The notes: generated from the letters alone by a model not told the origin. A DNA stretch of 64,000 nucleotides from a virus (IMGVR_UViG_3300033066_000693:64001-128000); one strand, 5' to 3'; numbered from the stretch's first letter, positions 3,000 to 17,663 are shown. A program made the numbers and translations.

Positions 3000-5900
3000 T
3001 TATTGGTTCCAACTCGTGTAAGATCCACGACCTTGCAGCGCTGCTCTAGCTGCAATGTAGAGAAGCTTCTCATTGTTCGTTGAGTTAACCCCAACAACCG
3101 TTATCTTGGCTTGAGAGTTCTGCGCAAGAATAGAATCAACAGAAACATTGAAGTTCTGTTGCCATTCTGCCGTCGTGCTTCCGCAATCGCTGCAAGCTCC
3201 GTCTGATAGAATAACAACATTCTTCAAGTTGGTAAAGTTCTGAGGGATATTGGACAACGAGGCGTACAAGTTTGCCGTAGTAGAAGAAGCTATTAGATTC
3301 GTATTGACATAGTTGATAACTTCCGTAGCGTCTGAAACAGTACGAAGTTCCTTGGTAAACTGTCCAGTTGTATTGTTGTACCAACCTATTGTAATCTTGT
3401 CGCCATATCGAACATAGGTTCGTAGCATGCTTGCAAATGCAGCCTTTATTCTATCCAACTTAGGACCAGCCATAGAAGAACTAATCTGAACAAGGAAGTA
3501 CCAAGGCGCATCTCCTGCAAGGAATGGGAATGGAGAAATCCTTGAATCCTCTCCGTTCAAGCTTGTTGTACAACCAATCGGAGATCCTGTCGTTAGCTGA
3601 GGACCGCTGACAAGAACAGGATTACCAGTTGATTGATCTACTATAAACTGTTGTCCAGAAGGACTTGCAGCATATAGGATGTTAGAGCCAGTACCACCAA
3701 GAGGGTCTTGAGCAAAGTTAATAGTGAACATACCAGCCAAACCGCCTTGAGTGCCTACAAGCGTTGGAACTCCGAAGTTCGTATCTGCTTCTATACGCAC
3801 AGAATACAACGAGTTATCAATAATGCACAACGAGTCAGGACCGCTCTGAATAAATGCAAATCCTCCAATGCTGTTTATGGTTATGCCGTTAGGAGCAGCA
3901 GCATTAGCGTCTTGAGTTAGAGAAACTGTCAAGTTGTTGGAATTGTAATCTAACTGGAAATAGAATGCTTGTGCCGACGCTCCAACCTTCTTGCGGCTAC
4001 AGAACATCATGACCTTACCAGTATACCAATTGTATTCAATACTCTTGCGAATTCCGTCATTAGAAGACAATGGGAATACGCCTCCAAAGCTTGTTACATA
4101 ATCTACATTATCAATGAACTCTACAATATCTCCTAGAATAGCAGGAGTGCTTGAGCCGCTGCCGGGGAAGACTCTTCGAATGCCGTCTGTCGTTATGGCA
4201 AGCATGGAGTTATCAGTAGGAACCCATGTTATATCAAAGATCTCAATACCCGGAGCAATGCTTGTGTCTATGGTTCCTTTGTTCGCCAACTGGCTTGTTG
4301 CCAATCCAAAATCATAAGATACCAAGCTATAGCGACTTGCTCCAAGAGACGGAGAATCTAACAAGTACCACAAACGGGTTGGAGGGCTTTCGCTAGAATC
4401 TGGCGTCGATAGACCGGGGCTAGGAGCGGCCAAATCAAACAAGCAGCAACCTATCTGCGTATATACAGGCAAAATCGGGTATTGGAAGACATTGCTATTG
4501 AGACTTTCTGTTATGATAGGTGTATATGCGCCCGGATCAAGTCTTGTAGGAGCGATAGCAGAACAACTATCGTCAAACGGATCATATGCAGCCGTTTTAT
4601 AGAATCGGAAAGTACGACGGTTGTTCAAGTTTATAACGTCTTGATACGTATTGATATTGATGAGAGAAGAAGATAGGTTTGCCTTTGTAGGTCTGAAGAC
4701 AAAGTATCCGCCGGATTGAGTCTCGTCAAATGCTGGAACTGGAATGCTTACTGGAACATCGCAAACAACTGAGTTATCTGCATATGCGTATGTTATACTG
4801 CTGTTATTAGAAGCAGGAGCAGAAGATATTCCTGTATGGAACTCGTCTAGAATGGCATTGGTACTTCTATTGAGGATTTCCAAGTTAGCGTGCCACCATT
4901 TTCTGCGTATCTGCGATGCTCCCTCTTGAGGAGGAGGGGCGTCGTTGTATCCCCATGAGAATACCGCTCCATTGACGGCTACAGCACAATATGTTAGAGT
5001 TTCGTCTCCAACCGGCACTTCTCCTACATCATACTTATTGATTGTATTTGAAAGCTTCCAGCGAATGTAAATATCAAAACCGTCATTGTTCATTGCGGTA
5101 ATTTGAGCCTCATTCAGCGAAGTAATATCTAGAGCAATGGCTCTATCTCTTTCTCCTGAACGATATCTTTCAGCAAGTGTGGCAGACGAACTTGGAGGAA
5201 TCCAGTTGAAAGAGCCTATCTTGAAGTCTCGACAACTATAGTTATCATGATCAGACAGTCTGTAAAGAACTTCTCCGCTAGTGGCATTCTTGATGATTAC
5301 TTGATCAACAGAAACATAACCGCCAAAGACAAGCGTGCCATTTAGTTCTGCTGAATCTAGACATTCCACTCGACCTCTCCAAAGAACCCTGATTTCTTTG
5401 TTTCTTTGGTTGATAATAGAACCGATCTGTCCGTCTGCAAAATGGTACTTCAAGAACTCCGTAGTTCCCATAGTATCATTTGGAGAAGAACCCGGCGGAG
5501 CAGTAAGCATAGCGCTACAATCGCCAACTCCGCTTGTTGCAATCGTTGTATTAACAAGCAGCGCGTTGCTAGGAGAAGTCCATCCAACTTCTACGCCGCT
5601 TACAACTGGAACTCCTACAATAGATGCAGAAACAGCAGATACGCTATTTGCTGTTAATGGTATGGAGAAAAGACCCTTACGAGCAGGAGTATAGTAGATG
5701 TCAAGTTCAAACGAGTCAGTATATATAGTGTAAGGAACAGTAGAAGTAGGATATGCTGCAAATCTGAAACTTATACCTGTAAAGGTTGAAAAGGTATTGC
5801 AAAAAGTTCCTATATGCCGTCTATTACTACTTCCATAGTTCGCTGGATTAGAGCTATAGTAGAATGGAGAAAAATCAGTTCTGCCCGGAGGGGTGAATGA

Positions 5901-6386
5901 ACCTCCATAGTTTCCACCAGAAAAATCGTTATTTCCACCAGAAAACAGTGTAATGTAATCAGGACCACTGTGAGTAAAGCGACGGTCTAAAGCAAGCTGT
6001 TCATTACTAAAATCCGTAGGCACAGATCGGTCAGGCCATATGGATGTAGAAGGGTCATATCGCTCAAAACTTCCTATTCGTTGATTGGCGTCTCTAAAAA
6101 GAGCAACTTCATACGAACCCGTCCTAATATTAAGAGGATCAGCAATCTTATTTCCAATAAAGCGATATTTGAAACCGTCAATAACAGCATCATTTAGGCT
6201 AGAAGGGATGCTAAACTTCATTAGGCATGAGTCAGACCAATCATTTAGACCGTCTCTGAAATATACCGTAGCAGAACAGTATTGTCCGTTGGCGGTAAGC
6301 AAGTTTTGAGGATTATCCAATACAAAATCGTCAGGGGTTAGCCTGATTATAGAGCTTGGACGTAGATTGGCTAACACTAAACTCAT
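3000..6386 (-). CDS. Large Ser/Thr/Asn/Gly-rich putative virion structural protein (1128 aa) with a C-terminal vWA-like domain (FLVQISSSM ... ILSDGACSD ... ITVVGVN)
   Basis: Size and composition are typical of phage fiber/baseplate/adhesin proteins. The last ~170 aa show the beta-strand and MIDAS-like pattern of von Willebrand A domains, with Q replacing the first Asp. Confidence 0.45.
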   Translation of the reverse strand: MSLVLANLRPSSIIRLTPDDFVLDNPQNLLTANGQYCSATVYFRDGLNDWSDSCLMKFSIPSSLNDAVIDGFKYRFIGNKIADPLNIRTGSYEVALFRDANQRIGSFERYDPSTSIWPDRSVPTDFSNEQLALDRRFTHSGPDYITLFSGGNNDFSGGNYGGSFTPPGRTDFSPFYYSSNPANYGSSNRRHIGTFCNTFSTFTGISFRFAAYPTSTVPYTIYTDSFELDIYYTPARKGLFSIPLTANSVSAVSASIVGVPVVSGVEVGWTSPSNALLVNTTIATSGVGDCSAMLTAPPGSSPNDTMGTTEFLKYHFADGQIGSIINQRNKEIRVLWRGRVECLDSAELNGTLVFGGYVSVDQVIIKNATSGEVLYRLSDHDNYSCRDFKIGSFNWIPPSSSATLAERYRSGERDRAIALDITSLNEAQITAMNNDGFDIYIRWKLSNTINKYDVGEVPVGDETLTYCAVAVNGAVFSWGYNDAPPPQEGASQIRRKWWHANLEILNRSTNAILDEFHTGISSAPASNNSSITYAYADNSVVCDVPVSIPVPAFDETQSGGYFVFRPTKANLSSSLININTYQDVINLNNRRTFRFYKTAAYDPFDDSCSAIAPTRLDPGAYTPIITESLNSNVFQYPILPVYTQIGCCLFDLAAPSPGLSTPDSSESPPTRLWYLLDSPSLGASRYSLVSYDFGLATSQLANKGTIDTSIAPGIEIFDITWVPTDNSMLAITTDGIRRVFPGSGSSTPAILGDIVEFIDNVDYVTSFGGVFPLSSNDGIRKSIEYNWYTGKVMMFCSRKKVGASAQAFYFQLDYNSNNLTVSLTQDANAAAPNGITINSIGGFAFIQSGPDSLCIIDNSLYSVRIEADTNFGVPTLVGTQGGLAGMFTINFAQDPLGGTGSNILYAASPSGQQFIVDQSTGNPVLVSGPQLTTGSPIGCTTSLNGEDSRISPFPFLAGDAPWYFLVQISSSMAGPKLDRIKAAFASMLRTYVRYGDKITIGWYNNTTGQFTKELRTVSDATEVINYVNTNLIASSTTANLYASLSNIPQNFTNLKNVVILSDGACSDCGSTTAEWQQNFNVSVDSILAQNSQAKITVVGVNSTNNEKLLYIAARAALQGRGSYTSWNQ

Positions 6387-9300
6387 GACTCATCCTGATT
6401 GTAATAATAACGGTAGCACATCTTCATTTCAGGCGAAGAGAAAACGCCTTGGGGCAAGAGCATTCCAACTCCCACTATTACATCGTCTTGACGGAAACCA
6501 TTTGTCCAATTCTTGAAGGTATACCCAATGCCTACAACAACAATCTCATTTTCTCCGCAATCCTTGATCACATCTGTCGGCGGTATATAGAACTTTGGTC
6601 TTACCCATAGATATGAAGTCTCTGTTTGTAATAGAGACTGAATCTCAGATATATCGTCAATCGGATCTGGATTATTAGGAAGCAACAGGAATTCTTTATT
6701 GAGTCTGCGAATAAGAGGCAAGTTCAAAGAAATAGGCGTGCAGTTAGAAAATTCCATAGTGTCTAGCTGATTGCCAGTTGGGAAATAGAAGCTTTGGATC
6801 TCTGCGGTATACAAAGTCTTGAGCAACAACAATGCATTACCGTTCATGAACGTCGGAATATTGCCAACGCTTACTAGAACAGGAACATTCATGGAAATGT
6901 TGTTATTGATTGGCGTTGTTAGATTGTTGCAATCAATAAGAGTTTGATAAGCAATCTCAAGACGATTCTGGATAATTTCAGGACCGCTTGGCTTTGGAGG
7001 ATCAATCAAGTTCCAGAAGTAATCGCAGAGGCCTATATCATAGACGCAAGTAAAGTCATGGAATACGCTAACTCTTGCCGTTCCTTGAACGCCGCTAGTT
7101 CTGCCTGTAACCAAGAAATCAATATCTATTGAACATCCATTAAGAGAGTTCTCGTCATTTCTAGCAGCTATCAGATCTGCAAGATATTTCTTAACAGGAT
7201 ACTCTAAAGTTAGAACCCAAACCTGAGGATTTCCCGGTAGCGGTTTTATTGAAACTGCATTTCGTATCGCCGCTGGAAGGCTAGTGGATATAGTAAAGTC
7301 ATAACCCTCGTCGTCATTGAGTATAGTACGAGAATAAAGAGTTCCTAGATGCGATAGGGTTCCATTTCGATCTACTTCTAGAATAGCTTCCGGAGAAATC
7401 AAAACGTCCCATGATGCTCTATTATCTAGAACAAGTCCATATGCTCTACCAAGTCTAGATTTTGTCTGCGACTTGTTATTATTTGTGCGGTTGACGGCCA
7501 AGAAACCGAAATTGTCCAATGAACTTGGAGCATTCAATATCTGCAAATGGATAGATTCAAGCTCTGTAGTATCCTCAATAGTTACGTCAATGGTATTGGC
7601 ATTTACAGGCACGATAACTGCCGCCGGTACCCCTAAAGTTCCGCCTTCGTTCCAAACAGCAGTAAAACGAGGGTCTGTAGGCGCAAATGGATTAAGAGGA
7701 TAAGACGGAGAGCCATTGCTATATGTCGCCAAGCCAGAGTAATGCGAGGCTGTTGAAGTATAAGTGCTTGAGTTTAGAGTCTTTCTTGTTCTTACAAGCA
7801 AATAAACAACGTCTGCGTCTGTAACTCGGAAAGAAATAGGCGAAATGGAGTTTTGAACTGGCTCAAAGAACTGATTAGGAGCAGTATTAGGGAAGAATGT
7901 ACCGTTACGCTCGAATCCTCCAATAGCAACTTGGATTCCGCTTTCTTCTGTAGGCGGAATAGTTGTAGGAAGCGTTATATCGAAGCTCAAAGTTACGTCA
8001 GCAGTTGGAGTGCTTACTCCGGGCAAGACTTGAACCGAACCGCTGAAAACATGAGGCTGAGTACCCGTAGTTATTGTTTGAGAGTCTGTAAGTAGGTTTG
8101 CTGGGATAGCGTCAGAATGCTGCACAGTACCAGAGTCTATCGTAACAAGAACGCCTGCTCGACCCGGACCCCAATCTCTATCAATATTCTGCGCAAGCAA
8201 AGTAAGAGTAGGATTGGTTGAGAACGGATACGTTCTAATATACGGAACAAGAACTGATCCAGAAAGATTTACTATCGTTCCAGCAACATTGATAGGAGTA
8301 GAAAATGGGCTAAGTCCAGAGACATCCAAGCTTGCATAAATAGGGTCAAGCAGTTCGGCATGAAGAAGATCTCCGTGGGCTGCGTTTACATTTGTGTTAA
8401 CAAGCTCGGATATAGTAGTACCAGAAACAGTAGGTATTTGGAAGTTATGAGTCAAAGTAATAGGCTGATAATCGTCGGACGGGCTAGTAGCTCCATTTCC
8501 AAAACGCATCTCATTTACTTGACCAAACGGAGTAAAGCTAACATTTCCCGGCAACGTTGAGAACGACGGAGGAGTGGTATTTGGGAAAGTTGGCCCGCCA
8601 AGTCCATGAACATTTTGATGATATCCTAGATACGAAGAGTTTTCTGCTGCATAGTAAGAAACTACGTCAAACTCCAAACTTATAGACGGTATGCCAACAA
8701 ATGCCGGAAACTTAGATGTTGCAGAGCCGTCAACAATCGCTTGGAATGCAGTCGCAACATCTTCTACAGTTGTTGTAGTAGCCGTATTGAAAGACAACTC
8801 AGGAGAGGCAACTGAATCTGCTACATATTGTCCTTCATACAAACTAGATTGGAAGAAGTTTGTTTGCGCATAAATGGAGACCGGCGTTGAAACCGCTCCA
8901 AGGCTGGGATTATTGGCATTGCTAGTGTAAATAGTCTGAGTAGAAGAAGTTCCCGCTCCTGCCCTAGTAAACAAGACAGGGATAGCTGGCAGATTTTCCC
9001 AATCTGGCCACGGTCTAATGTTTCTAGGATCTCCAACAAGATATTGGGTAACTCCGTCCAGACCAAGAACTCTATCTCGATTCCAGTTTATATCAAGACC
9101 ATAGCTTCCGAATGTGTCAACAACCCAATCAAAAACTTCTTTGAGCGTAGTTCCGCCAACTCCCTCAACAAGTCTTTTTTCAAACCTACCATTGATAGCA
9201 GGAACCGTAATTCTTAGCGCTCTAGACTCGAACAAGCTAGAAAAGCCTACATACGTAACCGTATTCAAATATATGCACTTAGCATAGCGAAGATGATCAC

Positions 9301-10573
9301 CGCTAGCTATGGTTATTCCAGCAGCAAACGCAGGAACAGCGTCTATAAGAGCTTGCATTCCTTGTATTGCTTGTTCGATTATTGTTGTAGTTGTAAAGTT
9401 GTAAACAAACGAATGAGGTATGCCGTTTACGCTTCCTTCTATAGTAAACGTTCTTGCTGTAGCGTCTATAGCAATCTTGCTGAACAATACTCCGTGCGCA
9501 GAAATCCTTATTGCGAAACGACCGGGCTGAGGAACGGTAGTAAAGACTCCGGGCGAAGTATAGAACTGCGTATCAAAGAAATCAATAGCGAAGAATGTAT
9601 TTCCTCCGCTAGTATAAGGAGCATAAAACGCATTAGCTCCCGGGAACATTCCTATCGTAAACATAGGAACAGAACCGCCGCCATTAGCGATTCCATACTC
9701 GCAGGAAAGATTTAGACGGCGGAAGCCAGCAGGATTAGCGGTAGAGTTAAGAAATGGCCTCCATAGTATAGAGGAAATCTTGACAGCATATCCCGCTCCG
9801 TCGCTCTGAGAAGTAATAGGAGATACTCCTGTAGGACGGATATAGATAGCAGCTTGGTCTGTAGCATCTTCGCTGTAATCAACAAATATGAACGAGTCAG
9901 CAAGTTGCTTGCTAATGTTGATATAGTTGAATCGTCTTGCTCCTGAAATGGTAGATCCATTCTCTATGGATATCAAATCAGCAGTAGTAAAGATATCTCC
10001 TGCGTCGATTATGAGCTTCGCATTATCTCGATCTACATGAACGCCAATAGGATTGGTAAACTGAGTAGTATTTACCAAAGACCCGTCAAATGCCAAGAAA
10101 GGTATGACAAATGTTGTAGGCTCAATATGTATGTTTGTGTCGTCATATGGAATTGTGATATCGAAAACTCTAGCGCCAGAGCTAGCGATAGGAATAAGGC
10201 TCATCTGAAGGCTTGTGAGCGAACCTATACCAGTAGGCGAAGTAACTTCTGTCAATGAAACAGAGTTACGTATTCGACTAATTTGAGTAGATGTTAGTCC
10301 TGCTCCGCTAATGGTAATCGCAGGAGTTCCATTGATCGGATTTCTACGGATTTGAAACTGACCGCTATAAGTTGTCCCGTCTGCGTCTACGCCGGGAACG
10401 CCTTGAACGTCCAAAACGATCAAATCTCTTTCTATAGCTTGAGTCTGGGCGCTAATCGTAATATCAAACGCAAATGGTGATTCTTCGTCAATGACGGTAG
10501 GGCCACTTACAGACGTTGTACCGATAAAACGCTGTTCAGTTTTGATTATCTTCTGTACGAACGACTGCGCCAT
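6383..10573 (-). CDS. Giant putative virion structural protein (1396 aa), Thr/Ser/Asn/Gly-rich
   Basis: A 4.2-kb ORF overlapping its neighbours by 4 nt. The composition is fibre-like. No catalytic motifs recognised. Confidence 0.4.
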   Translation of the reverse strand: MAQSFVQKIIKTEQRFIGTTSVSGPTVIDEESPFAFDITISAQTQAIERDLIVLDVQGVPGVDADGTTYSGQFQIRRNPINGTPAITISGAGLTSTQISRIRNSVSLTEVTSPTGIGSLTSLQMSLIPIASSGARVFDITIPYDDTNIHIEPTTFVIPFLAFDGSLVNTTQFTNPIGVHVDRDNAKLIIDAGDIFTTADLISIENGSTISGARRFNYINISKQLADSFIFVDYSEDATDQAAIYIRPTGVSPITSQSDGAGYAVKISSILWRPFLNSTANPAGFRRLNLSCEYGIANGGGSVPMFTIGMFPGANAFYAPYTSGGNTFFAIDFFDTQFYTSPGVFTTVPQPGRFAIRISAHGVLFSKIAIDATARTFTIEGSVNGIPHSFVYNFTTTTIIEQAIQGMQALIDAVPAFAAGITIASGDHLRYAKCIYLNTVTYVGFSSLFESRALRITVPAINGRFEKRLVEGVGGTTLKEVFDWVVDTFGSYGLDINWNRDRVLGLDGVTQYLVGDPRNIRPWPDWENLPAIPVLFTRAGAGTSSTQTIYTSNANNPSLGAVSTPVSIYAQTNFFQSSLYEGQYVADSVASPELSFNTATTTTVEDVATAFQAIVDGSATSKFPAFVGIPSISLEFDVVSYYAAENSSYLGYHQNVHGLGGPTFPNTTPPSFSTLPGNVSFTPFGQVNEMRFGNGATSPSDDYQPITLTHNFQIPTVSGTTISELVNTNVNAAHGDLLHAELLDPIYASLDVSGLSPFSTPINVAGTIVNLSGSVLVPYIRTYPFSTNPTLTLLAQNIDRDWGPGRAGVLVTIDSGTVQHSDAIPANLLTDSQTITTGTQPHVFSGSVQVLPGVSTPTADVTLSFDITLPTTIPPTEESGIQVAIGGFERNGTFFPNTAPNQFFEPVQNSISPISFRVTDADVVYLLVRTRKTLNSSTYTSTASHYSGLATYSNGSPSYPLNPFAPTDPRFTAVWNEGGTLGVPAAVIVPVNANTIDVTIEDTTELESIHLQILNAPSSLDNFGFLAVNRTNNNKSQTKSRLGRAYGLVLDNRASWDVLISPEAILEVDRNGTLSHLGTLYSRTILNDDEGYDFTISTSLPAAIRNAVSIKPLPGNPQVWVLTLEYPVKKYLADLIAARNDENSLNGCSIDIDFLVTGRTSGVQGTARVSVFHDFTCVYDIGLCDYFWNLIDPPKPSGPEIIQNRLEIAYQTLIDCNNLTTPINNNISMNVPVLVSVGNIPTFMNGNALLLLKTLYTAEIQSFYFPTGNQLDTMEFSNCTPISLNLPLIRRLNKEFLLLPNNPDPIDDISEIQSLLQTETSYLWVRPKFYIPPTDVIKDCGENEIVVVGIGYTFKNWTNGFRQDDVIVGVGMLLPQGVFSSPEMKMCYRYYYNQDES

Positions 10574-10578
10574 TTATG

Positions 10579-13335
10579 TTATACCTTTACGAACTTTGCA
10601 GGTAGTTCAGTCCCGATTTCAACCTTAAGCTTCTTATCTTTGTCGTATTGGAGCATAACATGCGTTCCGCTCTTTTCTACAACCTTGTAAGTTCTATCTT
10701 TCCCTGACTGGAAAGCGACTCCAACGCCTTTGCTGCGGTAGATATCTCCTACAGATACCATAGAAGCTTCGCCGGGCGACCTATAAATCATGGTCTTGAC
10801 GCCTTCCCATTGGGGTTCTGGACCTTCGCTAATGAGACGGCCTCCCGTACCAAAAGACGAACCAGAGCTAGCGTCTGCTTGCTTAGCCTTACCATACCAA
10901 TTATTCGCTTGCTTTCCTTGGGGATTGCCGTACATAGTTTGCACTTCTCCTCTAATAGACTCTACAAACTGAACAGCTTGAGCTTGATCAGCGATATTGC
11001 CTGCCAGTTGCTCGTCCATTAGCTTGTCCTGTATGTACTTGATAAAGTTAGGCTGTCCCTTTGGCGGCTTTAGAGAAAGACCCGGGAACATCTTCTGTAG
11101 CATCATTCCGTCTACAAGAGGCTTCATCTGTATTGGAACAGGACGATTCCTATATTCATTCATCTGACGAATATGCTCTTCCTTAAGGTCATAGTCAGCC
11201 TGATCGCCTTCTTCCGACTTAGCCATAGTATCAGCTTGAGCATGCATCATTACAAACTGCCAGACATCCTCTCTATTCGAGCCGGGTATCTGCGTGTCTC
11301 TCATGAACTTACCCATAGACTTGTTTGACCAAGAATCGGTATGCGGCCTCATATGTTGCTTTACAACCATCTGAACGAACTTTCTATCGTCTTCTCCGAT
11401 TCCAATTCGCTTCAATATAGCGTCAGCGATGTCCGCAGACTTATCTTCATGTCCAGCATAGCCAAACTCTCCCGGATCATTAGGCTTTTCCTTACCAATC
11501 TCGGGATGAGCCTTGCCGTAATCATGGAATACAGCAGCCATGAGCATAAGAATGCGGTCGTTCTTATCAACCTTCTTTTGCTTCATGATTCTATCGAGGT
11601 TCTCGACAACTCTAAGAGTGTGTTCAAGAAGATTGAACTTATGGTGCCTGTTCTTTTGGTCCATAGTTAGCGGATGAAGACCCTGAACTTCGGGAGCGTC
11701 AAAAACAGCCTTGTCCATGCCTGTTGCAAACAAGGCACGAATGGCTTCTGCTGGGCGTTCTGCTCCGAACATTTTCAAAATTTCTGGTCCTGCCCTTTCT
11801 GGCGAAACCTTCTTGCGATAGGCTTCATGAACAGCAGGATTGGACATCGCATCCATCGTCCCCTTCTCAATAGTGGCCTTTGGGTATCTGCTAAAGAAGC
11901 GGAATACTCTAAGCATTCTAAGAGGGTCGTCCATGAACGTCTTAGTAGGGTCTAGCGGAGTGCGAAGCGTCATTGTCTGAAGGTCTTGCATTCCTCCGAC
12001 ATAATCTTCAATCTGTTGATTATTGACGTTGTAGAACATAGAGTTGATGGTCAAATCTCTTCTTTGCGCGTCAACTTTGGGATCGTTAGAGAGCTTCATA
12101 GTAGGGATTCTACTATCTCCATAGCTTTCGTCTCGCAGATTGACAAAATCAATCTTTAGTCCTGCGATATCAAGAGCGGTAGTCTCAAGATGCTTTGATT
12201 TTTCTGCATTCTGCTTAACAACGTATGCAGAGTCCATATTGATAGGAGCGTTTGGATTTGACTGCTTGTATATTTCAGCCTTATCAACAAACTGCTGTCC
12301 TGTCATCTTGTCTAGAGCAATATCTATGTCGTCGCTTGGAGTACCTAGCAACTTATCTCGAACCCAGCCACCAGCAACTCGGAATGTTATACCTAGGTTG
12401 AGCTTGTTATTGATATCCAATAGCGTAGCAAAAATCTGCTGCTCCTGCGTAGTAAGCTCTAGCTTAGGAGCTTGCTGAGGTTGCTGCATTGGTTGCGGCT
12501 GCTGTGGTTGCGATTGTTGAGGCGGCACTTGGGCTGCTTTCTGATGACCTATTTCTCTAACGATATTTTCCATGAAGCCAGACCTAGCCCAAAACTCGGC
12601 GCTAAAGTTCTCTGGCTTTCGCTTGAAATCCGCCTTATCTGGGCGTCTATCCCAGCGTATAGCAAGGATATCTCGGAGAGCGCTGATAGGATCAACAGAT
12701 CTACACTTCTCAGTATGAATTCCCAATGTTGGAAGATTGACTTCAAACAAGCGAAGAGGCTTTGCAAACTTGTATTTATCTATGCCGGGGACATAGGCTG
12801 TCGTATAGACAGGACAAGTCGGACAGAACTCTTGCACAATGCTCTCAACTACGGCTACCGAGTGGTATTCTCCGCTCTCAACAACTATAGAGCTAAGGCA
12901 GTCAGAGATGTCAATCCAGTTAGTATCAAAGACTGCCATGCCTCCAAATATATCAACCTTACATCCATTCTTTTCCGCAAGCTGCTTGGGGCCAAGATTT
13001 ACAACAACCTGAAGCTTTTGGTCCTTGATGATCTTGCCTGCAACAGCATTGGAGAACATGATTACCTTAGACAGCGCATGTATTCTGTTTGACGACAGAA
13101 CAGAACGCAACTGAATGATATCCATAGCAAAGACGCACTTGTTATAGAAATCGCCCTTCTCGAAAACCGCTTGGAGCAAGTGGCGTGGAGAGCTTTGCAG
13201 AATCTTTTCTGAATCGCGCACAGAAAGAAGAGAACGCAAGGCATGGTCTGCCTGCTCTTCGGTTAAACGAGAACCTTGATTGGCTTGATAGACCAACATG
13301 GCGTCTTGTATCATTTTGTCGAAGTCAGCGGCCAT
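10579..13335 (-). CDS. cca: tRNA nucleotidyltransferase (CCA-adding enzyme)/poly(A) polymerase head domain plus HD domain, embedded in a 918-aa protein with an unknown ~290-aa N-terminal domain, a Q/P-rich linker and a ~200-aa C-terminal extension
   Basis: GGWVRDKLLG...DIDIA is the class II nucleotidyltransferase head motif, and FHDYGKAHPEIGKEK is an HD-domain motif. The linker QQSQPQQPQPMQQPQQ lies at about 12470-12530. Confidence 0.65.
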   Translation of the reverse strand: MAADFDKMIQDAMLVYQANQGSRLTEEQADHALRSLLSVRDSEKILQSSPRHLLQAVFEKGDFYNKCVFAMDIIQLRSVLSSNRIHALSKVIMFSNAVAGKIIKDQKLQVVVNLGPKQLAEKNGCKVDIFGGMAVFDTNWIDISDCLSSIVVESGEYHSVAVVESIVQEFCPTCPVYTTAYVPGIDKYKFAKPLRLFEVNLPTLGIHTEKCRSVDPISALRDILAIRWDRRPDKADFKRKPENFSAEFWARSGFMENIVREIGHQKAAQVPPQQSQPQQPQPMQQPQQAPKLELTTQEQQIFATLLDINNKLNLGITFRVAGGWVRDKLLGTPSDDIDIALDKMTGQQFVDKAEIYKQSNPNAPINMDSAYVVKQNAEKSKHLETTALDIAGLKIDFVNLRDESYGDSRIPTMKLSNDPKVDAQRRDLTINSMFYNVNNQQIEDYVGGMQDLQTMTLRTPLDPTKTFMDDPLRMLRVFRFFSRYPKATIEKGTMDAMSNPAVHEAYRKKVSPERAGPEILKMFGAERPAEAIRALFATGMDKAVFDAPEVQGLHPLTMDQKNRHHKFNLLEHTLRVVENLDRIMKQKKVDKNDRILMLMAAVFHDYGKAHPEIGKEKPNDPGEFGYAGHEDKSADIADAILKRIGIGEDDRKFVQMVVKQHMRPHTDSWSNKSMGKFMRDTQIPGSNREDVWQFVMMHAQADTMAKSEEGDQADYDLKEEHIRQMNEYRNRPVPIQMKPLVDGMMLQKMFPGLSLKPPKGQPNFIKYIQDKLMDEQLAGNIADQAQAVQFVESIRGEVQTMYGNPQGKQANNWYGKAKQADASSGSSFGTGGRLISEGPEPQWEGVKTMIYRSPGEASMVSVGDIYRSKGVGVAFQSGKDRTYKVVEKSGTHVMLQYDKDKKLKVEIGTELPAKFVKV

Positions 13336-13544
13336 TAGGCTTTTTTCCTTCTACATCCGCCGCAGCCGGGCTTGGCTGGCGGAGGAGTTGGTTGTCTTGG
13401 TGGGGTCGGAGGCGGCGGCGGCTTGTTAGGCGGAGGCGTCTGAGGGTTAGATTGATTGAATCTTATGTTCTGTGCCATTTGCGGTGTTCCTAAACCTATC
13501 TTGTTAAGAAGAACTTTCTTCTGAAAGAGATCATTTATTGGCAT
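13335..13544 (-). CDS. Small Pro-rich protein (69 aa) ending in PGCGGCRRKKA
   Basis: ATG start with GGAG upstream. Its stop overlaps the downstream start as TAATG (translational coupling). Low-complexity composition lowers confidence. Confidence 0.35.
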   Translation of the reverse strand: MPINDLFQKKVLLNKIGLGTPQMAQNIRFNQSNPQTPPPNKPPPPPTPPRQPTPPPAKPGCGGCRRKKA

Positions 13545-14190
13545 TGGTTACGATCTCCGTTTCTTTTACAACCAAATCTACAATCTCGGCAATCGCTCGC
13601 TTGGCTTCGTCCGTCTTGGCCTCGCTATACTTTACAGTCATGACCGTATTTAGTCTTTCAACAAGAATACGGATTGGCTCATTCTCTTGCTTCATGGCAC
13701 GAATGCGTTCTTGAACCTTAGTAGCTTGGTCAATGAGCTTGATAAGAGTTTCTTGCCCTCTTCTCATATCTTCAGAGCTTACTCGACTGATTGTAGACCC
13801 AAGAGTATGAATCTGTTGATCAAGAAGAGTGGCATATGTATGCAATCTCTCTTCTTCGTCTACCTTGATGCGCGAATAATCTTGTAGGTTCTCTGCGTAT
13901 GCCTTGATGCGTTGTTCGTATATTGGCTTATTGTAATGTTCTACGAAGTGATTGTTAACTCCATGAGCAGATAGGTCTTCGCCCTTGGTCTTGAGCCATT
14001 TATAAACCCAATGGGCTGGCTTTCCATCGGCATAGAGTTCTTCTGCCTCTTTTCGATAGATGGAGTTGCACATCTTACAATTTGGCCTGACTATTGGCTC
14101 GCACTTCATATTCTTGACGTAATCAAAAATATTGGTGTAAGAAGGGTCAGACTTTATGCTTTTTTCTATAGCTTTTGGTTCGTCAGCCAC
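13531..14190 (-). CDS. hypothetical protein, 219 aa; an N-terminal Cys cluster (CEPIVRPNCKMC) is followed by a coiled-coil region
   Basis: ORF tiles with its neighbours. No recognised family. Confidence 0.4.
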   Translation of the reverse strand: MADEPKAIEKSIKSDPSYTNIFDYVKNMKCEPIVRPNCKMCNSIYRKEAEELYADGKPAHWVYKWLKTKGEDLSAHGVNNHFVEHYNKPIYEQRIKAYAENLQDYSRIKVDEEERLHTYATLLDQQIHTLGSTISRVSSEDMRRGQETLIKLIDQATKVQERIRAMKQENEPIRILVERLNTVMTVKYSEAKTDEAKRAIAEIVDLVVKETEIVTNANK

Positions 14191-14200
14191 AAATCTCTCC

Positions 14201-14605
14201 TCAATATAAGCCCTTCTTGGGCTTTGATGGATCTAGTAAACCGTGGGAAAAATCATTGCGAAGCTTGATGAGCTTCTTTACTTTCTGGTCTAGCTCGAAA
14301 GCTGCTGACTTGCACAAATCAGCAAATCTTGCAGGAGAATCCAATGCTATGCTGTCAGCTTGATCTAATATCTCAATGACAATAGGAAAAGACGAGACTT
14401 TCTTATTGCTACGGATCTTAGCAACTACGCCTCTAGCCCCTCGCTGGGTCTGATATACCAACTGCGAACAATATCTCAGTAAGTCAGAGATATCTTCTAA
14501 TGCTCGTATTTGAGCATTGACAATGTTTCTATCTGAAAAGTCTTCAATGACGAAGCCATTGTCTTTCAGTTTAGGTTTCTTTTCTTGGGCTAGAGTGTAC
14601 CACAT
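14201..14605 (-). CDS. hypothetical protein, 134 aa
   Basis: Tiling minus-strand ORF. Confidence 0.35.
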   Translation of the reverse strand: MWYTLAQEKKPKLKDNGFVIEDFSDRNIVNAQIRALEDISDLLRYCSQLVYQTQRGARGVVAKIRSNKKVSSFPIVIEILDQADSIALDSPARFADLCKSAAFELDQKVKKLIKLRNDFSHGLLDPSKPKKGLY

Positions 14606-15324
14606 TACTTGTCTTTCTCCACTAGAACTTTGTAAGACTCCGTTACGTCTGAAAAATCGCCATTCTCGTCCTTTCTTAGAACTACGCCATCAACAGTATC
14701 GCCGTTTACTTGCAAATAAAAGGCCTCCCCGCCAGTAAACGACCCTTTGGCCGACATCGAGAACTTATTGCCCAAAATACTAAACACAACCCTCATTCCG
14801 CTATCGCTCTGGTAGAACTTCTGAGCATTTTTGGCTAGAGCCTTGGTATTAGCAACAATTTTCTGTATCTTGAGTTCATTTCCAGCTTGCTTGACCGCCT
14901 TGGTAATAGCAGCTATCTCGTTACGGTAGTTATCTTCTGAAAATGGGATTTGCTGCAACTCTTCCCAAATAGGCTGAAATAGCCCCAAGTCTAGATCTGC
15001 GCTATTATTTGCGGTTTTCCCTTTAGTGGAAGATTTCTTAACAGGAGCCATCCCAATTGAAGAGGCCACAGACGAAGCAACGGCTCCCATATCAAGATGG
15101 AAGCCTTGTTTGTCCATTACTTGACCTTCTACAAGCTCGGTGTCGCCTATGATATCAGGTCCGTCAGGTTCTCCCGATTCGTCTACGCTAGCTCCTGCGG
15201 CCTTTGCTGCGCCTTTGAGCAAAGCGTTCTTAATTGTCTCTTCATCGAGGTGAACGCCTTGACGGTCTACTATTCTACCGTCTACTTGTTCGGCTTCTCC
15301 TCGCATATTGTCACTGGGCGGCAT
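14605..15324 (-). CDS. hypothetical protein, 239 aa, with an internal tandem repeat (IVDRQGVHLDEET / VMDKQGFHLDMGA)
   Basis: Tiling ORF. The repeat is visible in the translation. Confidence 0.4.
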   Translation of the reverse strand: MPPSDNMRGEAEQVDGRIVDRQGVHLDEETIKNALLKGAAKAAGASVDESGEPDGPDIIGDTELVEGQVMDKQGFHLDMGAVASSVASSIGMAPVKKSSTKGKTANNSADLDLGLFQPIWEELQQIPFSEDNYRNEIAAITKAVKQAGNELKIQKIVANTKALAKNAQKFYQSDSGMRVVFSILGNKFSMSAKGSFTGGEAFYLQVNGDTVDGVVLRKDENGDFSDVTESYKVLVEKDK

Positions 15325-15937
15325 TGAGTTGTCTCCTGAGATATTCTGCGATCAATAGAGCTTCGGCTTTTCCGTCGTCCTTTTTTAGCTCAAACTCTTC
15401 GCTCAAGTTAGGATACAACTTTCCGGCCAATTCTCTTGCATGGTCTTTGGCTAGTTTTTTAGCCTTGTCCATTTCTTGCTTATGCAATACCTTGGCTTCT
15501 TTATGCTTTTTCCTATCCGTAGCAGAGAGGCGATTGACTTCAACAGGACTTAGCTTAAGTATCTCGGGCTTTTCCAGCTTCTTCAAAAGCTGATCACCAT
15601 ATTCTTTTTTCCATGTCATAGGCGAAATAAGTAACAAGTTCAAACGCAATGCCCCAACAATGCCTTTAAGAATACCAAAGCCTTCGCCAAAATTGAACAT
15701 AGAAACATTTCCGTTTCCGGGCATAGGAGCAATTCGCTCGATCCCGACATATGTTCTGTCCTTAGGCAATCCTTCAAGAAGTTTAACTATACTCGCTATA
15801 TCATATTCAGTTTTGTTTTTGCCATTCTTCTTTGATTTAATCACGGGCATATAAAGCGTATCAATTACATTTCCATTTAGTATAGCAATAGCTCCTGAAT
15901 AACCCGGATCAATCCCAACAAATACATTCATAGTCAC
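15311..15937 (-). CDS. ruvC: RuvC-like Holliday junction resolvase
   Basis: The N-terminal VFVGIDPGYSGAIAIL matches the RuvC catalytic Asp motif (IILGIDPGSR...). Later acidic residues and the length (208 aa) are consistent. Confidence 0.6.
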   Translation of the reverse strand: MTMNVFVGIDPGYSGAIAILNGNVIDTLYMPVIKSKKNGKNKTEYDIASIVKLLEGLPKDRTYVGIERIAPMPGNGNVSMFNFGEGFGILKGIVGALRLNLLLISPMTWKKEYGDQLLKKLEKPEILKLSPVEVNRLSATDRKKHKEAKVLHKQEMDKAKKLAKDHARELAGKLYPNLSEEFELKKDDGKAEALLIAEYLRRQLNAAQ

Positions 15938-16650
15938 CTCATCTTGTAGATTTTTTCTTGTTCATCGAAAAACACAATTTTTCTATCTAATAGCTCTTTG
16001 AGTAGCTTACCTACACTGGCGTGTGCATTTATATGTTCCTTAACGGAACACAGACACAGGTTTTCAATCCTGTTGTCGGTTTTTACGCCATTAATGTGAT
16101 GAACGACTTCATCCTTTCTAAGAAATCTACCTAATTTCTCTTCCATTACTAGGCGGTGTTCATATACAAAATTGGCTCTTGCAAACGGATGTTCGGGGGC
16201 ATATCTCAATATATGTCCTGAACATTTTCTAACTTTAGTAAAACCCTTCCAGTTTACGTTCAACGGTCCAGATTGGAGTATATATCTGCATTTGTCAGAA
16301 CAGACATGATTCTTGGCTTTGTTCATTGATACAAAAGACGACTTCCCGCAATTACTACACACTATCTGCTTGATAGGTCTTCTTAGTTTTCTTCCTCCAT
16401 AGGGATAAAATATAAAATAGGTGTTACTTCTAGTGCTTTTGTAAACTCTGTCCCCATTGAAATAATGCTCTGTTTCAACAAAAGGGTGTGCAGCTCTATG
16501 AGAATCAGGCTTAGATCGAATAGAGACGCCATTTTTAATTAGCGTCTTGATAACAAAATGATGATCCTTCCCAATTTCTTTGCCTATACTATTGGCACTT
16601 CGGTTTTTGGCATATTCTTGTACTATAAAGTCGTCAGGATTTTTCATCAT
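15934..16650 (-). CDS. HNH homing-type endonuclease with a zinc-binding Cys cluster
   Basis: HHINGVKTDNRIENLCLCSVKEH is the HNH motif. CSNCGKS...CSDKC is a zinc ribbon. Confidence 0.65.
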   Translation of the reverse strand: MMKNPDDFIVQEYAKNRSANSIGKEIGKDHHFVIKTLIKNGVSIRSKPDSHRAAHPFVETEHYFNGDRVYKSTRSNTYFIFYPYGGRKLRRPIKQIVCSNCGKSSFVSMNKAKNHVCSDKCRYILQSGPLNVNWKGFTKVRKCSGHILRYAPEHPFARANFVYEHRLVMEEKLGRFLRKDEVVHHINGVKTDNRIENLCLCSVKEHINAHASVGKLLKELLDRKIVFFDEQEKIYKMR

Positions 16651-16670
16651 TCATTCCAAAATAGAACAAC

Positions 16671-16700
16671 CACACCCTATCATCGGCTAAATAGGGCGTG
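16671..16700 (-). terminator. Hairpin (10-bp stem with one G.U, 10-nt loop) followed by a U-rich stretch on the minus-strand transcript, between the epimerase and the HNH gene
   Basis: cacaccctat / atagggcgtg form an inverted repeat. The minus-strand RNA continues GUUGUUCUAUUUUGG. Confidence 0.3.
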
Positions 16701-16727
16701 GAAGTTTAGTTTTGAAATATAGAGACT

Positions 16728-17663
16728 TTACAAGTTCAACGAGTTTATGGTTTTGTTCAACCCATTCTCGAAGGAAACCATTGGTTGATAACCTATTACT
16801 TCTTTCGCGAGGTCAATAGAAGCTCTCGTTCTCATGATATCTCCCTCTCGGAAAGGAGCTTGTTTGATATCAAACTTGAAGCGGCTCTTGAGCATATCAA
16901 GAATCTCATTGTTTGATATCTCAACGCCGCTAGCGATGTTCAAAGCTATACCATTGAGATTCTTCTTGCAAGTAGCCGCAAGGATGTTGGCATTTACAAT
17001 GTCGTCAACGAACACCATATCTCTGCTCTGTTCGCCTGTTCCGTCTTTTCGGAGCGGTTCGCCGTCTTTGATTGCGTTTAGCCAGCAGCTTACAGCAGTT
17101 GCGTATACTCCCTTGTTGTACTGATAAGGGCCATATGCATTGAAGTATCTTAGAGATACAGAATCTACATCAGAAGTCCTGCTATTAAGTTCTAGGAGTT
17201 GTTCGCAGATGTATTTCTGCAAACCATATGGAGATTCAGCTACTTTAGGAGAATCTTCGGTAACAGGAAGAACCTTGCTATTTCCATATACAGCAGCCGA
17301 AGACGCAAAAACTATTCGCCCTATATTGCGGCCTCTTCTAGCTTCGTCAAGCATTAGAACTGTTGTATCTTGAACATTATTACGGAACGATACATATGGC
17401 TTCTCTACAGAATAGAGAACGCTCGGCAGCGCCGCCTGATGGAAGACGACATCAAAATCATCAAACTTCGAAGTGATAACGTAGCGTCTAAGGTCTTGGA
17501 AATGAATCTTGACCGTGCCTGCTTTTCTCAGAATAAGCCTTCGCTTTTCATGATACTCGGTCTTGCCACTGTCAACAATGGTTACGTCCCAACCAAGCGA
17601 CATGCACTTGAGGGCGATGTTACATCCTATGAATCCTAGTCCGCCTGTTACGAGAACTTTCAT
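16728..17663 (-). CDS. NAD-dependent sugar epimerase/dehydratase (UDP-hexose 4-epimerase-like SDR)
   Basis: N-terminal Rossmann motif VLVTGGLGFIGCN. A YxxxK catalytic motif (YGLQKY). Length 311 aa. Confidence 0.65.
   Translation of the reverse strand: MKVLVTGGLGFIGCNIALKCMSLGWDVTIVDSGKTEYHEKRRLILRKAGTVKIHFQDLRRYVITSKFDDFDVVFHQAALPSVLYSVEKPYVSFRNNVQDTTVLMLDEARRGRNIGRIVFASSAAVYGNSKVLPVTEDSPKVAESPYGLQKYICEQLLELNSRTSDVDSVSLRYFNAYGPYQYNKGVYATAVSCWLNAIKDGEPLRKDGTGEQSRDMVFVDDIVNANILAATCKKNLNGIALNIASGVEISNNEILDMLKSRFKFDIKQAPFREGDIMRTRASIDLAKEVIGYQPMVSFENGLNKTINSLNL

Follow-up and report, generated by a model that had tools for sequence, protein, structure and literature searches.

The gene at positions 10579-13335 (minus strand) of the window, the whole 64,000-nucleotide stretch of viral DNA analyzed here, encodes a 918-residue protein in which a CCA-type enzyme is placed within a two-domain phage protein, an arrangement that has not been previously described. 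We consider it probable that the protein is bipartite, with a CCA/HD repair enzyme nested in a frame that acts as a binding or tethering module. The ORF had been proposed in a sequence-only reading of this DNA and was confirmed in the ORF list, with an ATG start and a stop codon at 10579-10581. The motifs named in that reading were found at residues 322-327 (GGWVRD), 336-340 (DIDIA) and 604-608 (HDYGK). Full-length homologues are 33-72% identical to the protein across 97-100% of the length, and at least 40 metagenomic homologues keep the architecture over their entire length, which excludes a chance ORF or a mis-fusion.

The middle of the protein, comprising residues ~295-795, would constitute a full enzyme for maintaining tRNA 3' ends, of which E. 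coli Cca is the typical example. Class II nucleotidyltransferases are characterized by motifs A (GGxVRD...DxD), B (RRD), C (GGxxDL) and D ([DE]DxxRxxRxxRF). All four were present in the core, and the catalytic residues were invariant in an alignment of 28 sequences; with motif E counted, all five motifs (A-E) of the head and neck were invariant there. The nucleotidyltransferase head (residues 295-460; 11956-12453, minus strand) matched PF01743 (PolyA_pol head) over residues 319-458 with 85.7 bits, compared to a gathering cut-off of 23 (E = 4e-24). Motif A, GGWVRD...DIDIA, occupies residues 322-340, motif B (RRD) residues 425-427 and motif C (GGMQDL) residues 447-452; the invariant residues of the head are G322, G323, R326, D327, D336, D338 and R425-D427. 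The neck (residues 461-560; 11656-11955, minus strand) contains motif D, DDPLRMLRVFRF, at residues 469-480, with D469, D470, R473, R476, R479 and F480 invariant, and a motif E region, ER..PE..K. It gave a weak match to PF12627 (residues 506-550) and could be aligned to 9kma and 9ns4. The head and neck together were 46% identical over 259 residues to the A. thaliana CCA enzyme, 9kma (E = 1.5e-56), and the core scored 166 bits (4e-48) against PHROG 2244, “tRNA nucleotidyltransferase”. The core ends in a canonical, helical CCA-enzyme tail (residues 713-795; 10951-11199, minus strand) with a profile match to eukaryote-type CCA enzymes. About half of what had been described as a C-terminal extension of ~200 residues is this ordinary tail. 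The assignment of the core to the class II tRNA nucleotidyltransferases of the CCA-adding type, with an intact HD domain, was supported by Pfam, PHROG and the scores against relatives in the PDB, in agreement with the sequence-only reading.

The HD phosphohydrolase domain (residues 561-712; 11200-11655, minus strand) matched PF01966 (HD) over residues 570-672 with 37.3 bits (gathering cut-off 22; E = 4e-9), and H565, H572, H604-D605, H629-E630, H661 and D702 were invariant in the 28 sequences. By homology, the HD domain would strip 2',3'-cyclic, 2'- or 3'-phosphates left by nucleases, after which the C-C-A end of phage and/or host tRNAs would be restored by the head and neck in the course of infection. 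Homology lends good support to this CCA/HD repair role, and suggests that the tRNA ends repaired may be those attacked by host defences. No tRNA genes were found by ARAGORN in the 64-kb window, as previously claimed, and none were present in seven related loci; an Rfam search of the window gave no match of any kind. RNA ligase and Pnkp, which had been raised as possible partners, were absent from the ~73 ORFs of the window at the thresholds used, as were RtcB, 2H and macro domains; the alignment-mode Pfam scans used for these repair partners give families only, and very weak matches could escape them.

The N-terminal extension is genuine, as had been proposed, consisting of a conserved domain (residues 1-268) followed by a Gln/Pro-rich hinge (residues 269-292; 12460-12531, minus strand; alignment columns 301-370). 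The hinge itself is confined to the window protein: homologues have a short linker at this position, and in one (P0018) there is a 60-residue insertion. Residues 1-190 (12766-13335, minus strand), the first part of the frame, were modelled as a four-helix region (residues 1-60) and an ADP-ribosyltransferase (ART)-fold domain (residues ~60-180). These are followed by a small alpha/beta subdomain, Nsub2 (residues 191-268; 12532-12765, minus strand), in which DSSP placed strands at 195-201 and 206-213 and a helix at 216-230 of the model. A219, L224, W249 and V259 in Nsub2 were invariant in the 28-sequence alignment. Only some members of the frame family have the subdomain, and the frame proteins of ~290 residues lack it.

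According to the model, the N-domain adopts the fold of ADP-ribosyltransferases that use NAD, and is most like Tpt1 and DarT, to our knowledge the two ART families whose substrates are nucleic acids. Many of its fold neighbours are toxins. The ART fold of the Tpt1 NAD-binding lobe was recovered, with only ~106 residues of full-length Tpt1 chains aligning with the N-domain. There was no sequence match to the N-domain in Pfam (23 members), a PDB profile search, PADLOC or PHROGs; this includes PF01885 (23 members, Pfam E≤1) and the DarT models (Pfam DUF4433, PADLOC DarTG). Alignment to Tpt1 with hhalign, local as well as forced-global, was negative, with a probability of 0.1%, and matches in the BFVD fold library were weak (TM ≤0.36) and limited to uncharacterised proteins of jumbo phages and giant viruses. 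A register-free conservation scan of 167 non-redundant members found no histidine conserved in >25%, no acidic or amide residue after S95 conserved in >49%, and none of the ART triads H-Y-[EDQ], R-S-E and H-H-h; an RH dipeptide at residues 51-52 occurs in 16-36% of members. Tpt1, the motifs of which were checked in PDB sequences, requires the His of an Arg-His-Arg-Arg tetrad and the His/Thr of HGT (PMC6333775). With neither a Tpt1, DarT or Pfam sequence signal nor a conserved histidine, canonical ART catalysis by the N-domain is unlikely.

The N-domain family nevertheless has a moderately to highly conserved polar cluster formed by R77 (95% of the 167 members), S95 (74%), C71, D72 and Y106. 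In the DSSP string of the model, these five residues and G131-G132 appear to fall at strand ends, the usual place of an ART active site, and the ART-like domain may therefore have an unconventional active site. The window protein lacks C71 and Y106. Since two of the pocket residues have been lost in this protein and no ART triad is conserved, the frame most likely serves for binding or tethering and has no catalytic activity, or at any rate none of the canonical kind. It probably does not supply the repair pathway with a second enzymatic activity.

Past the CCA tail, a low-confidence linker (residues 796-844; 10804-10950, minus strand; pLDDT <50-57) carries a Gly-rich stretch and a linear motif, NWY..K.ADASS (residues 812-824), that is conserved family-wide and retained in frame proteins without a CCA core. 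The remainder (residues 845-918; 10582-10803, minus strand), the second part of the frame, was modelled as a five-stranded beta-barrel that could be superposed on known Tudor/SH3-like members. Its closest fold neighbours are the RNA polymerase (RNAP)-binding Tudor domains of UvrD/PcrA, CarD and RapA. Because the Tudor/SH3 fold class is generic for binding of proteins and nucleic acids, a specific partner could not be inferred from it. The suggestion that the extensions add a kinase, a ligase or a second phosphoesterase was rejected, as no test gave anything in its support; the folds are ART at the N-terminus and Tudor/SH3-like at the C-terminus.

The two domains had been described as extensions of a CCA enzyme. 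Instead, sequence comparisons indicate that the N- and C-domains form an independent, older two-domain protein that has received the CCA-HD core. The two domains occur together in standalone proteins of about 290 and 366 residues, encoded at the same syntenic locus of related huge phages (contigs of 333-498 kb). These CCA-less frame genes are complete, are directly followed by the next gene, and have flanks homologous to those in the window. A profile search with the N-domain retrieved 180 representatives from 1.84 billion proteins, with the architectures Nart-Cdom (33), Nart-Nsub2-Cdom (13), Nart-neck-HD-Cdom (2) and Nart-other insert-Cdom; many of the short N-domain matches may be gene fragments. 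About 30% of the representatives have the frame without any CCA/HD core. In four proteins (P0207, P0211, P0217 and P0243), an unrelated insert of ~600 residues takes the place of the CCA core; it gave negative results in Pfam, PDB phmmer and PDB profile searches and in hhalign against the CCA family.

The frame is equally conserved with and without the core, with 20-58% identity, compared to 40-86% for the core. CCA-less forms are dispersed across the frame tree and frame-less cores are nested within the core tree, showing, in neighbour-joining trees of p-distances without support values, that the core or the frame appears to have been lost repeatedly. The possibility of a split gene was rejected, since the 273-residue unannotated gene upstream of a core-only CCA gene (locus L006) does not encode a frame protein. 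Neither the N-domain nor the frame was encoded in any of 50,697 phage records, and no relatives of the N-domain were found in IMG/VR. At the DNA level, the window lacked a near match among deposited phages, and IMG/VR contained no exact match. Nothing was found in GTDB genomes in a single-protein scan, and an alignment scan of the same genomes returned only distant bacterial CCA genes and one 2-kb fragment.

In the window, the genes for a clamp loader, clamp, sigma factor, helicase and virion protein all lie on one strand, in keeping with a phage. Upstream of the frame gene is a syntenic block (13335-15931, minus strand) consisting of a RuvC-like resolvase (15311-15931), assigned by PHROG 1770, and ORFs of 239, 134, 219 and 69 residues, with homologous flanks in five related loci (L001, L003, L007, L008 and L009). 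Downstream, a 1396-residue protein without PHROG or Pfam matches (6383-10573, minus strand) starts 5 nt past the stop of the CCA gene. This protein is syntenic in all related loci, and in L001, L003, L007 and L008 the frame gene is followed by one of its homologues. No convincing terminator was found between 16670 and 6383.

These observations can be accommodated by a model in which a CCA-HD enzyme was inserted into a frame protein specific to the clade, separating its two halves. The N-terminal one would comprise the helical bundle, the ART-fold domain and the small alpha/beta subdomain, and the C-terminal one the Tudor/SH3-like barrel, attached via the NWY..ADASS linker. In this clade of huge phages, the conserved frame gene is always found between the RuvC-like block and the ~1400-residue protein, and occurs without an insert, with CCA-HD or with another, unrelated insert. 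The frame would tether its insert to a partner, for which RNA, RNA polymerase and a virion component are candidates.

Several other interpretations were considered, most of which assign a different role to the frame. The ART-fold domain might be an active, non-canonical relative of Tpt1/KptA that removes a terminal 2'-/3'- or an internal 2'-phosphate with NAD+, acting in series with the HD domain and the CCA head in a three-enzyme machine for healing tRNA ends. KptA/Tpt1 belongs to the RNA-repair enzymes known from jumbo phages (PMC9503650), some Tpt1 enzymes take off terminal 2'/3'-phosphates (PMC6573784), the conserved polar cluster is present, and fusion to a CCA/HD repair enzyme would make functional sense. 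However, the Tpt1 hallmarks are missing, with no conserved histidine and with the RH dipeptide in a minority of members; the alignment appears to take in the NAD lobe but not the RNA-binding lobe, the profile searches and hhalign were negative, C71 and Y106 are missing from the window protein, and the frame is frequently kept without the CCA/HD core. We consider this explanation unlikely. Distinctly unlikely is a broader proposal, in which the N-domain represents a new, active ART clade with a pocket of Arg77, Ser95 and Tyr106 plus Cys71-Asp72, using NAD+ on tRNA 3' ends for phosphate removal or transfer or for RNA ADP-ribosylation; a single polypeptide would then combine NAD-dependent end cleaning, HD dephosphorylation and CCA rebuilding, and the frame would be a reusable chassis for RNA-end enzymes in huge phages. 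It is quite improbable that the frame is an offensive, host-modifying ADP-ribosyltransferase, steered by the Tudor-like domain to a host target such as RNA polymerase in the manner of T4 Alt/ModA, with CCA-HD as accessory cargo. The toxin neighbours of the ART fold, the RNAP-binding neighbours of the C-domain, the persistence of the frame when the core is lost, and the fast evolution of the frame relative to the core, a trait of conflict proteins (PMC9503650), are consistent with this idea, but the R-S-E, H-Y-E and H-H-h triads are all absent, there is no sequence match to Alt/Mod, DarT or the ART models in PADLOC, Pfam and PHROG, and the best BFVD match to a named RNAP-ART was insignificant (E = 0.32).

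A role of the N- and C-domains as a packaging or ejection scaffold, whereby the enzyme is injected with the DNA and pre-empts tRNA-cleaving abortive infection, is suggested by the constant frame and variable middle, the 5-nt gap that couples the gene to downstream giant proteins, the lack of a convincing terminator, the presence of a PHROG “virion structural protein” within the same co-directional block, and the precedent of injected RNA-repair domains fused to MuF or portal proteins (PMC9503650). Yet the frame has no likeness to known capsid-targeting, MuF, portal or ejection proteins, the downstream giant proteins are without annotation, the upstream genes are those of replication and recombination, and the argument is one of position alone; we regard this role as very improbable. 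There is similarly very little chance that the core falls short of a full CCA-adding enzyme and instead polyadenylates, or adds A only or CC only. All of its motifs recur in poly(A) polymerases and in split CC- and A-adding enzymes as well as in class II CCA enzymes, and both split enzymes of S. pombe, cca1 and cca2, are close relatives, with the A-adding cca2 scoring slightly above cca1. Matches to pcnB models were also obtained (87 bits), and every NCBIfam CCA equivalog fell below its cut-off (TIGR02692, 127.1/438.8; NF008137, 93.9/451; NF009814, 79.4/290). The NF008137 model, “multifunctional CCA addition/repair protein”, aligned across residues 422-719. On the other hand, the core scored 195 bits against the full CCA enzyme of A. 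thaliana, near-gapless from motif A to motif B, and 157-176 bits against the S. pombe enzymes, but 52 bits against E. coli poly(A) polymerase. Classification as a poly(A) polymerase, which the earlier analysis had named as an outcome that would overturn its assignment, was rejected because characterised CCA enzymes scored so much higher, a conclusion to which the PHROG 2244 score also contributes. The HD domain and tail are likewise a CCA-type rather than a poly(A) polymerase-type architecture, and neither the window nor the related loci contain a second class II nucleotidyltransferase gene for the missing half-reaction. Sequence does not distinguish CCA-adding enzymes from A-only or CC-only ones, and the core may be regarded as a putative C-C-A adder.

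The arrangement bears on a class of proteins, the CCA enzymes of large phages, that are routinely annotated but given no further attention. Throughout this huge-phage clade (genomes of roughly 0.3-0.5 Mb), the CCA enzyme sits as an inserted domain within a different conserved protein. Should the partner of the frame be tRNA, RNA polymerase or the virion, this would show how phages position tRNA repair; if the frame is catalytic, it would represent a previously undescribed ART clade and add an NAD-linked step to tRNA end repair. The natural variants, having frame only, core only, both, or frame with an alternative insert, provide a ready-made dissection of the parts. The eukaryote-like head and neck are 46% identical to the plant enzyme, compared to ≤36% for those of bacterial chromosomes, a difference relevant to how class II CCA enzymes evolved.

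Among known systems, the frame resembles its structural counterparts in fold alone. Tpt1/KptA (PF01885) shares no sequence similarity with the phage N-domain, which lacks the Arg-His-Arg-Arg tetrad and the HGT/VHxS histidines and was modelled with a helical bundle at its N-terminus, apparently instead of a winged-helix RNA lobe, as well as an extra alpha/beta subdomain. DarT of the DarTG system differs in that the phage N-domain has neither a PADLOC or Pfam DarT match, nor a macrodomain partner nearby, nor a conserved His or Glu. The RNAP-interacting Tudor/SH3-like domains (UvrD/PcrA C-terminal domain, CarD/CdnL N-domain) and KOW domains similarly lack sequence similarity to the phage barrel. 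The phage tRNA nucleotidyltransferases of PHROG 2244/24229, including those of jumbo and huge phages, belong to the same family as the core and share a presumed role in tRNA 3'-end maintenance (PMC7824862, PMC7162821), but the deposited members share ≤31% identity with it, restricted to residues ~292-812.

The closest solved relatives of the phage head, neck and tail are the eukaryote-type CCA enzymes (A. thaliana, 9kma; S. pombe cca1/cca2, 9ns2/9ns4), in which a body domain takes the place of the phage HD domain and the N- and C-terminal frame domains are absent. E. coli Cca (NF008137) has the same domain order, with an HD phosphohydrolase after the nucleotidyltransferase head and neck, and its motifs A-E and HD ligands are present in the phage protein, of which the same chemistry would be expected by analogy. 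In work by Yakunin and colleagues from 2004, the E. coli enzyme reportedly displayed 2',3'-cyclic phosphodiesterase, 2'-nucleotidase and phosphatase activities in addition to CCA addition. The phage protein differs from it in its score of 94 bits relative to the NF008137 cut-off of 451, in the eukaryote-like subtype of its head and neck, and in its size of 918 residues compared to ~410, the enzyme being embedded between two domains that elsewhere exist independently.

The CCA gene lies on the minus strand of the window (10579–13335) and encodes a protein of 918 aa from an ATG start. The motifs named by the sequence-only reading were located at residues 322–327 (GGWVRD), 336–340 (DIDIA) and 604–608 (HDYGK). 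Pfam placed a PolyA_pol head at residues 319–458 (85.7 bits vs. a cut-off of 23) and an HD domain at residues 570–672 (37.3 bits vs. a cut-off of 22), with a weak PolyA_pol_RNAbd match between them (residues 506–550). PHROGs returned phrog_2244, “tRNA nucleotidyltransferase” (4e-48), and a 259-residue BLASTP alignment with 9kma showed 46% identity. Across 28 aligned full-length homologues, the catalytic carboxylates and templating residues of the head and neck (G322, G323, R326, D327, D336, D338, R425–D427, D469, D470, R473 and R476) were invariant, as were the HD ligands H565, H572, H604, D605, H629, E630, H661 and D702. Judged by these scores, the identity to 9kma and the conservation of the motifs, the head is thus not the poly(A) polymerase or minimal nucleotidyltransferase that had been considered. 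The core (head, neck, HD domain and tail, residues ≈295–795) is assigned by sequence to the class II CCA-adding/HD family, as a putative full CCA-adding enzyme. Its head and neck (window 11689–12480, residues 286–549) share 46% identity with the CCA-adding enzyme of Arabidopsis thaliana (9kma), while the best bacterial chromosomal enzymes retrieved from 185,579 species genomes reach only 25–36%. The sole 45% match is a 2-kb fragment (L010) that is probably phage, although it sits in the bin of a Verrucomicrobia MAG from Lac Pavin. These similarities mark the core as a eukaryote-like CCA subtype joined to a bacterial-style HD domain.

The core had been thought to carry large extensions at both ends. 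At the N-terminus, this was borne out: a conserved domain (residues 1–268) is followed by a Gln/Pro-rich hinge (269–292), found only in the window protein among the 28 homologues. Part of the C-terminal extension, however, proved to be unexceptional. A profile of residues 715–918 matched C-terminal tail sequence in 9kma (521–574) and in 3wfo, an A-adding enzyme from Aquifex (448–500), and the AF2 model of the same residues superposed on the corresponding tails in 1miv, 9kma and 3h37. Thus, residues ≈713–795 are an ordinary CCA tail, and the true addition consists of a low-confidence linker (796–844) and a Tudor-like domain of ≈74 aa (845–918). The predicted disordered linker contains a linear motif, NWY..K.ADASS (window 10864–10902, residues 812–824), that is conserved throughout the family, including proteins consisting of the frame only, and could serve for docking or mark a site of processing.

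Together, the N- and C-domains form a single module, a frame inside which the CCA enzyme is nested and which occurs with and without the core. When the N-domain profile was run through all 1.84 billion representatives with HMMER, it found only 180 proteins, all of them metagenomic, whose architectures were assigned with sub-profiles from the full-length alignment. The N-domain stands alone in 43 representatives (some probably fragments), is joined to the C-domain in 33 (≈260–300 aa), and to Nsub2 (residues 191–268) and the C-domain in 13 (≈366 aa). About 25 have the full frame and the CCA-HD core (≈800–1,000 aa). Two, P0188 (502 aa) and P0195 (649 aa), have kept the N-domain, neck, HD domain and C-domain with no detectable nucleotidyltransferase head, so that phosphoesterase-only framed enzymes exist. 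In four others (≈750–850 aa: P0207 at 10001–12544 of locus L009, P0211, P0217 and P0243), the N- and C-domains enclose ≈600 aa without similarity to Pfam, the PDB or the CCA family; the frame therefore holds at least two kinds of cargo. The CCA-less proteins retain the linker NWY..K.ADASS..G.GGR, and their genes are complete, the next gene starting within a few bases. All three kinds of locus are orthologous: upstream are counterparts of the window's 239-, 134- and 219-aa ORFs and of its RuvC-like gene, and downstream a counterpart of its 1396-aa ORF, whether the locus carries the CCA core (L001, L003), lacks it (L007, L008) or has the other insert (L009). Full-length members occur on contigs of up to 333 kb and 498 kb, which makes this a huge-phage clade; no copy of the frame is encoded among 50,697 deposited phage genomes.

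Two distance-based trees without support values were built. In the neighbour-joining tree of the frame domains, CCA-less forms occupy many separate positions among full-length forms: P0126, 68% identical to P0039, lies inside the P0038–P0042 clade, and further pairs are P0139/P0119, P0134/P0120 and P0136/P0140. In the tree of the head-neck-HD core, framed cores are basal and found throughout, while a frame-less clade of 33 enzymes (≈510–590 aa) and a few singletons are nested among them. The simplest reading of these sequence trees would be an old fusion, after which core or frame was lost repeatedly. The frame evolves faster than the core (20–58% vs. 38–86% identity to the window protein) and is equally conserved with and without it.

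The window itself is a tightly packed phage segment of ≈73 ORFs on the minus strand, with no near-DNA match among the 50,697 deposited records. It encodes a clamp loader, a sliding-clamp-like protein, a sigma factor, a helicase, a dNMP kinase, a RuvC-like resolvase, an HNH endonuclease and a virion structural protein, as well as SpoVS, RecA, radical SAM, Toprim primase and DNA methylase genes. A proline-rich 69-aa ORF (13335–13544, minus) ending in CGGCRRKKA overlaps the CCA start codon by one base; every related locus has a 54–75-aa ORF at this position, the L003 copy being 48% identical. Directly downstream are two giant, translationally close-coupled minus-strand ORFs (6383–10573, 1396 aa; 3000–6386, 1128 aa) that neither PHROGs nor Pfam matched. 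The larger of the two proteins, of 1396 aa, is conserved (40–47% identity) beside the frame gene in related huge phages. The HNH gene (15934–16650, minus) looks like a window-specific mobile insertion: L003 and L004, which are syntenic here, lack it and run from the epimerase gene directly into the RuvC-like gene. The region's best terminator-like hairpin (12 bp stem, 16670–16701) lies just upstream of the HNH gene. A DnaJ-like chaperone (18281–19378, minus) was recognised from its synteny with genes that Pfam annotates as DnaJ in L003, L004 and L009. A sugar-nucleotide/glycosylation set, unusually extensive for a phage, occupies ≈30000–53000 and 16728–17663 (minus), and includes NeuB, a CMP-sugar cytidylyltransferase, two GDP-mannose-dehydratase/epimerase-type genes, a TylF-type O-methyltransferase, several family-2 glycosyltransferases and HAD hydrolases.

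The structural neighbours of the modelled N-domain include many ART toxins and PARP catalytic domains, and an ADP-ribosyltransferase fold is robustly predicted, nearest to the nucleic-acid-directed Tpt1 and DarT. This resemblance raises the question of whether the N-domain is a non-canonical Tpt1-like enzyme active in tRNA end healing. In Tpt1, an Arg-His-Arg-Arg tetrad carries out catalysis and the His and Thr of HGT contact NAD (PMC6333775); we confirmed the hallmarks LRH, R..GHS, HGT and R.YVH[LV]S in the PDB sequences. When the profiles of the phage N-domain and Tpt1 were compared, the probability was 0.1%, and the Tpt1-like RH at 51–52 occurs in only 16–36% of members; we consider this alternative unlikely. 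Equally, an ART directed at the host and aimed by the Tudor-like domain would share the fold, and no DarT or other defence-system model matched the N-domain. A register-free scan of 167 non-redundant N-domains found no histidine more than 25% conserved and, downstream of the conserved Ser, no acidic or amide position above 49%, so that the H-H-h, H-Y-E and R-S-E triads are all absent; a host-directed ART appears distinctly unlikely. The conserved polar residues are instead R40 (80%), C71 (78%), D72 (74%), R77 (95%), S95 (74%), K101 (60%) and Y106 (74%), from which the window protein deviates with A70-M71 in place of P-C and Q106 in place of Y. In our reading of the DSSP string these conserved residues would lie at the ends of strands, where the pocket of an ART is located, and may form an unconventional ART site. 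The contig of P0048, a frame-less relative of the core, has an NAD/ADP-ribose-related neighbourhood (L006 1–6400): 8 kb with a PARP/WGR protein, PRPP synthetase, a nucleoside deoxyribosyltransferase-like protein and an HD_4 protein.

We favour a frame that is a binding or tethering module with a function of its own and that would position its insert, as suggested by its distribution and the lack of catalytic triads. That it is a scaffold for virion delivery, with its different cargoes carried along, strikes us as highly improbable. By homology with E. coli Cca, the HD domain of the core would clear phosphates from 3′ ends that carry them, after which the CCA would be rebuilt by the head and neck. 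The bacterial CCA models of NCBIfam align over residues 315–768 with scores far below their equivalog cut-offs; the nucleotidyltransferase and HD motifs are intact, and it is very doubtful that the core is something other than a full CCA enzyme. The window ORFs include no member of the RNA ligase, Pnkp, RtcB, 2H or macro families. As stated in the sequence-only reading, the 64 kb contain no tRNA genes: ARAGORN found no tRNA or tmRNA, and an Rfam scan found no family at gathering score. The seven related loci contain no tRNA genes either, with the remaining 80–90% of these genomes lying outside the window and loci.

CCA-adding enzymes and KptA have both been recorded in jumbo or huge phages (PMC7824862, PMC7162821, PMC9503650). 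The survey of NAD systems among these reports never mentions “CCA” (PMC9503650), and a targeted literature search found no description of a CCA-frame fusion. Within the libraries searched, the nested architecture, the frame family with its 180 representatives, and the variable insert of that family are all new. None of the curated bacterial CCA families has the window protein as an equivalog; among these, the E. coli-type Cca (NF008137) is named “multifunctional CCA addition/repair protein”, and its activities were reportedly described by Yakunin et al. in 2004. The N-domain resembles Tpt1 and DarT in fold only, and by their defining residues it belongs to neither family.
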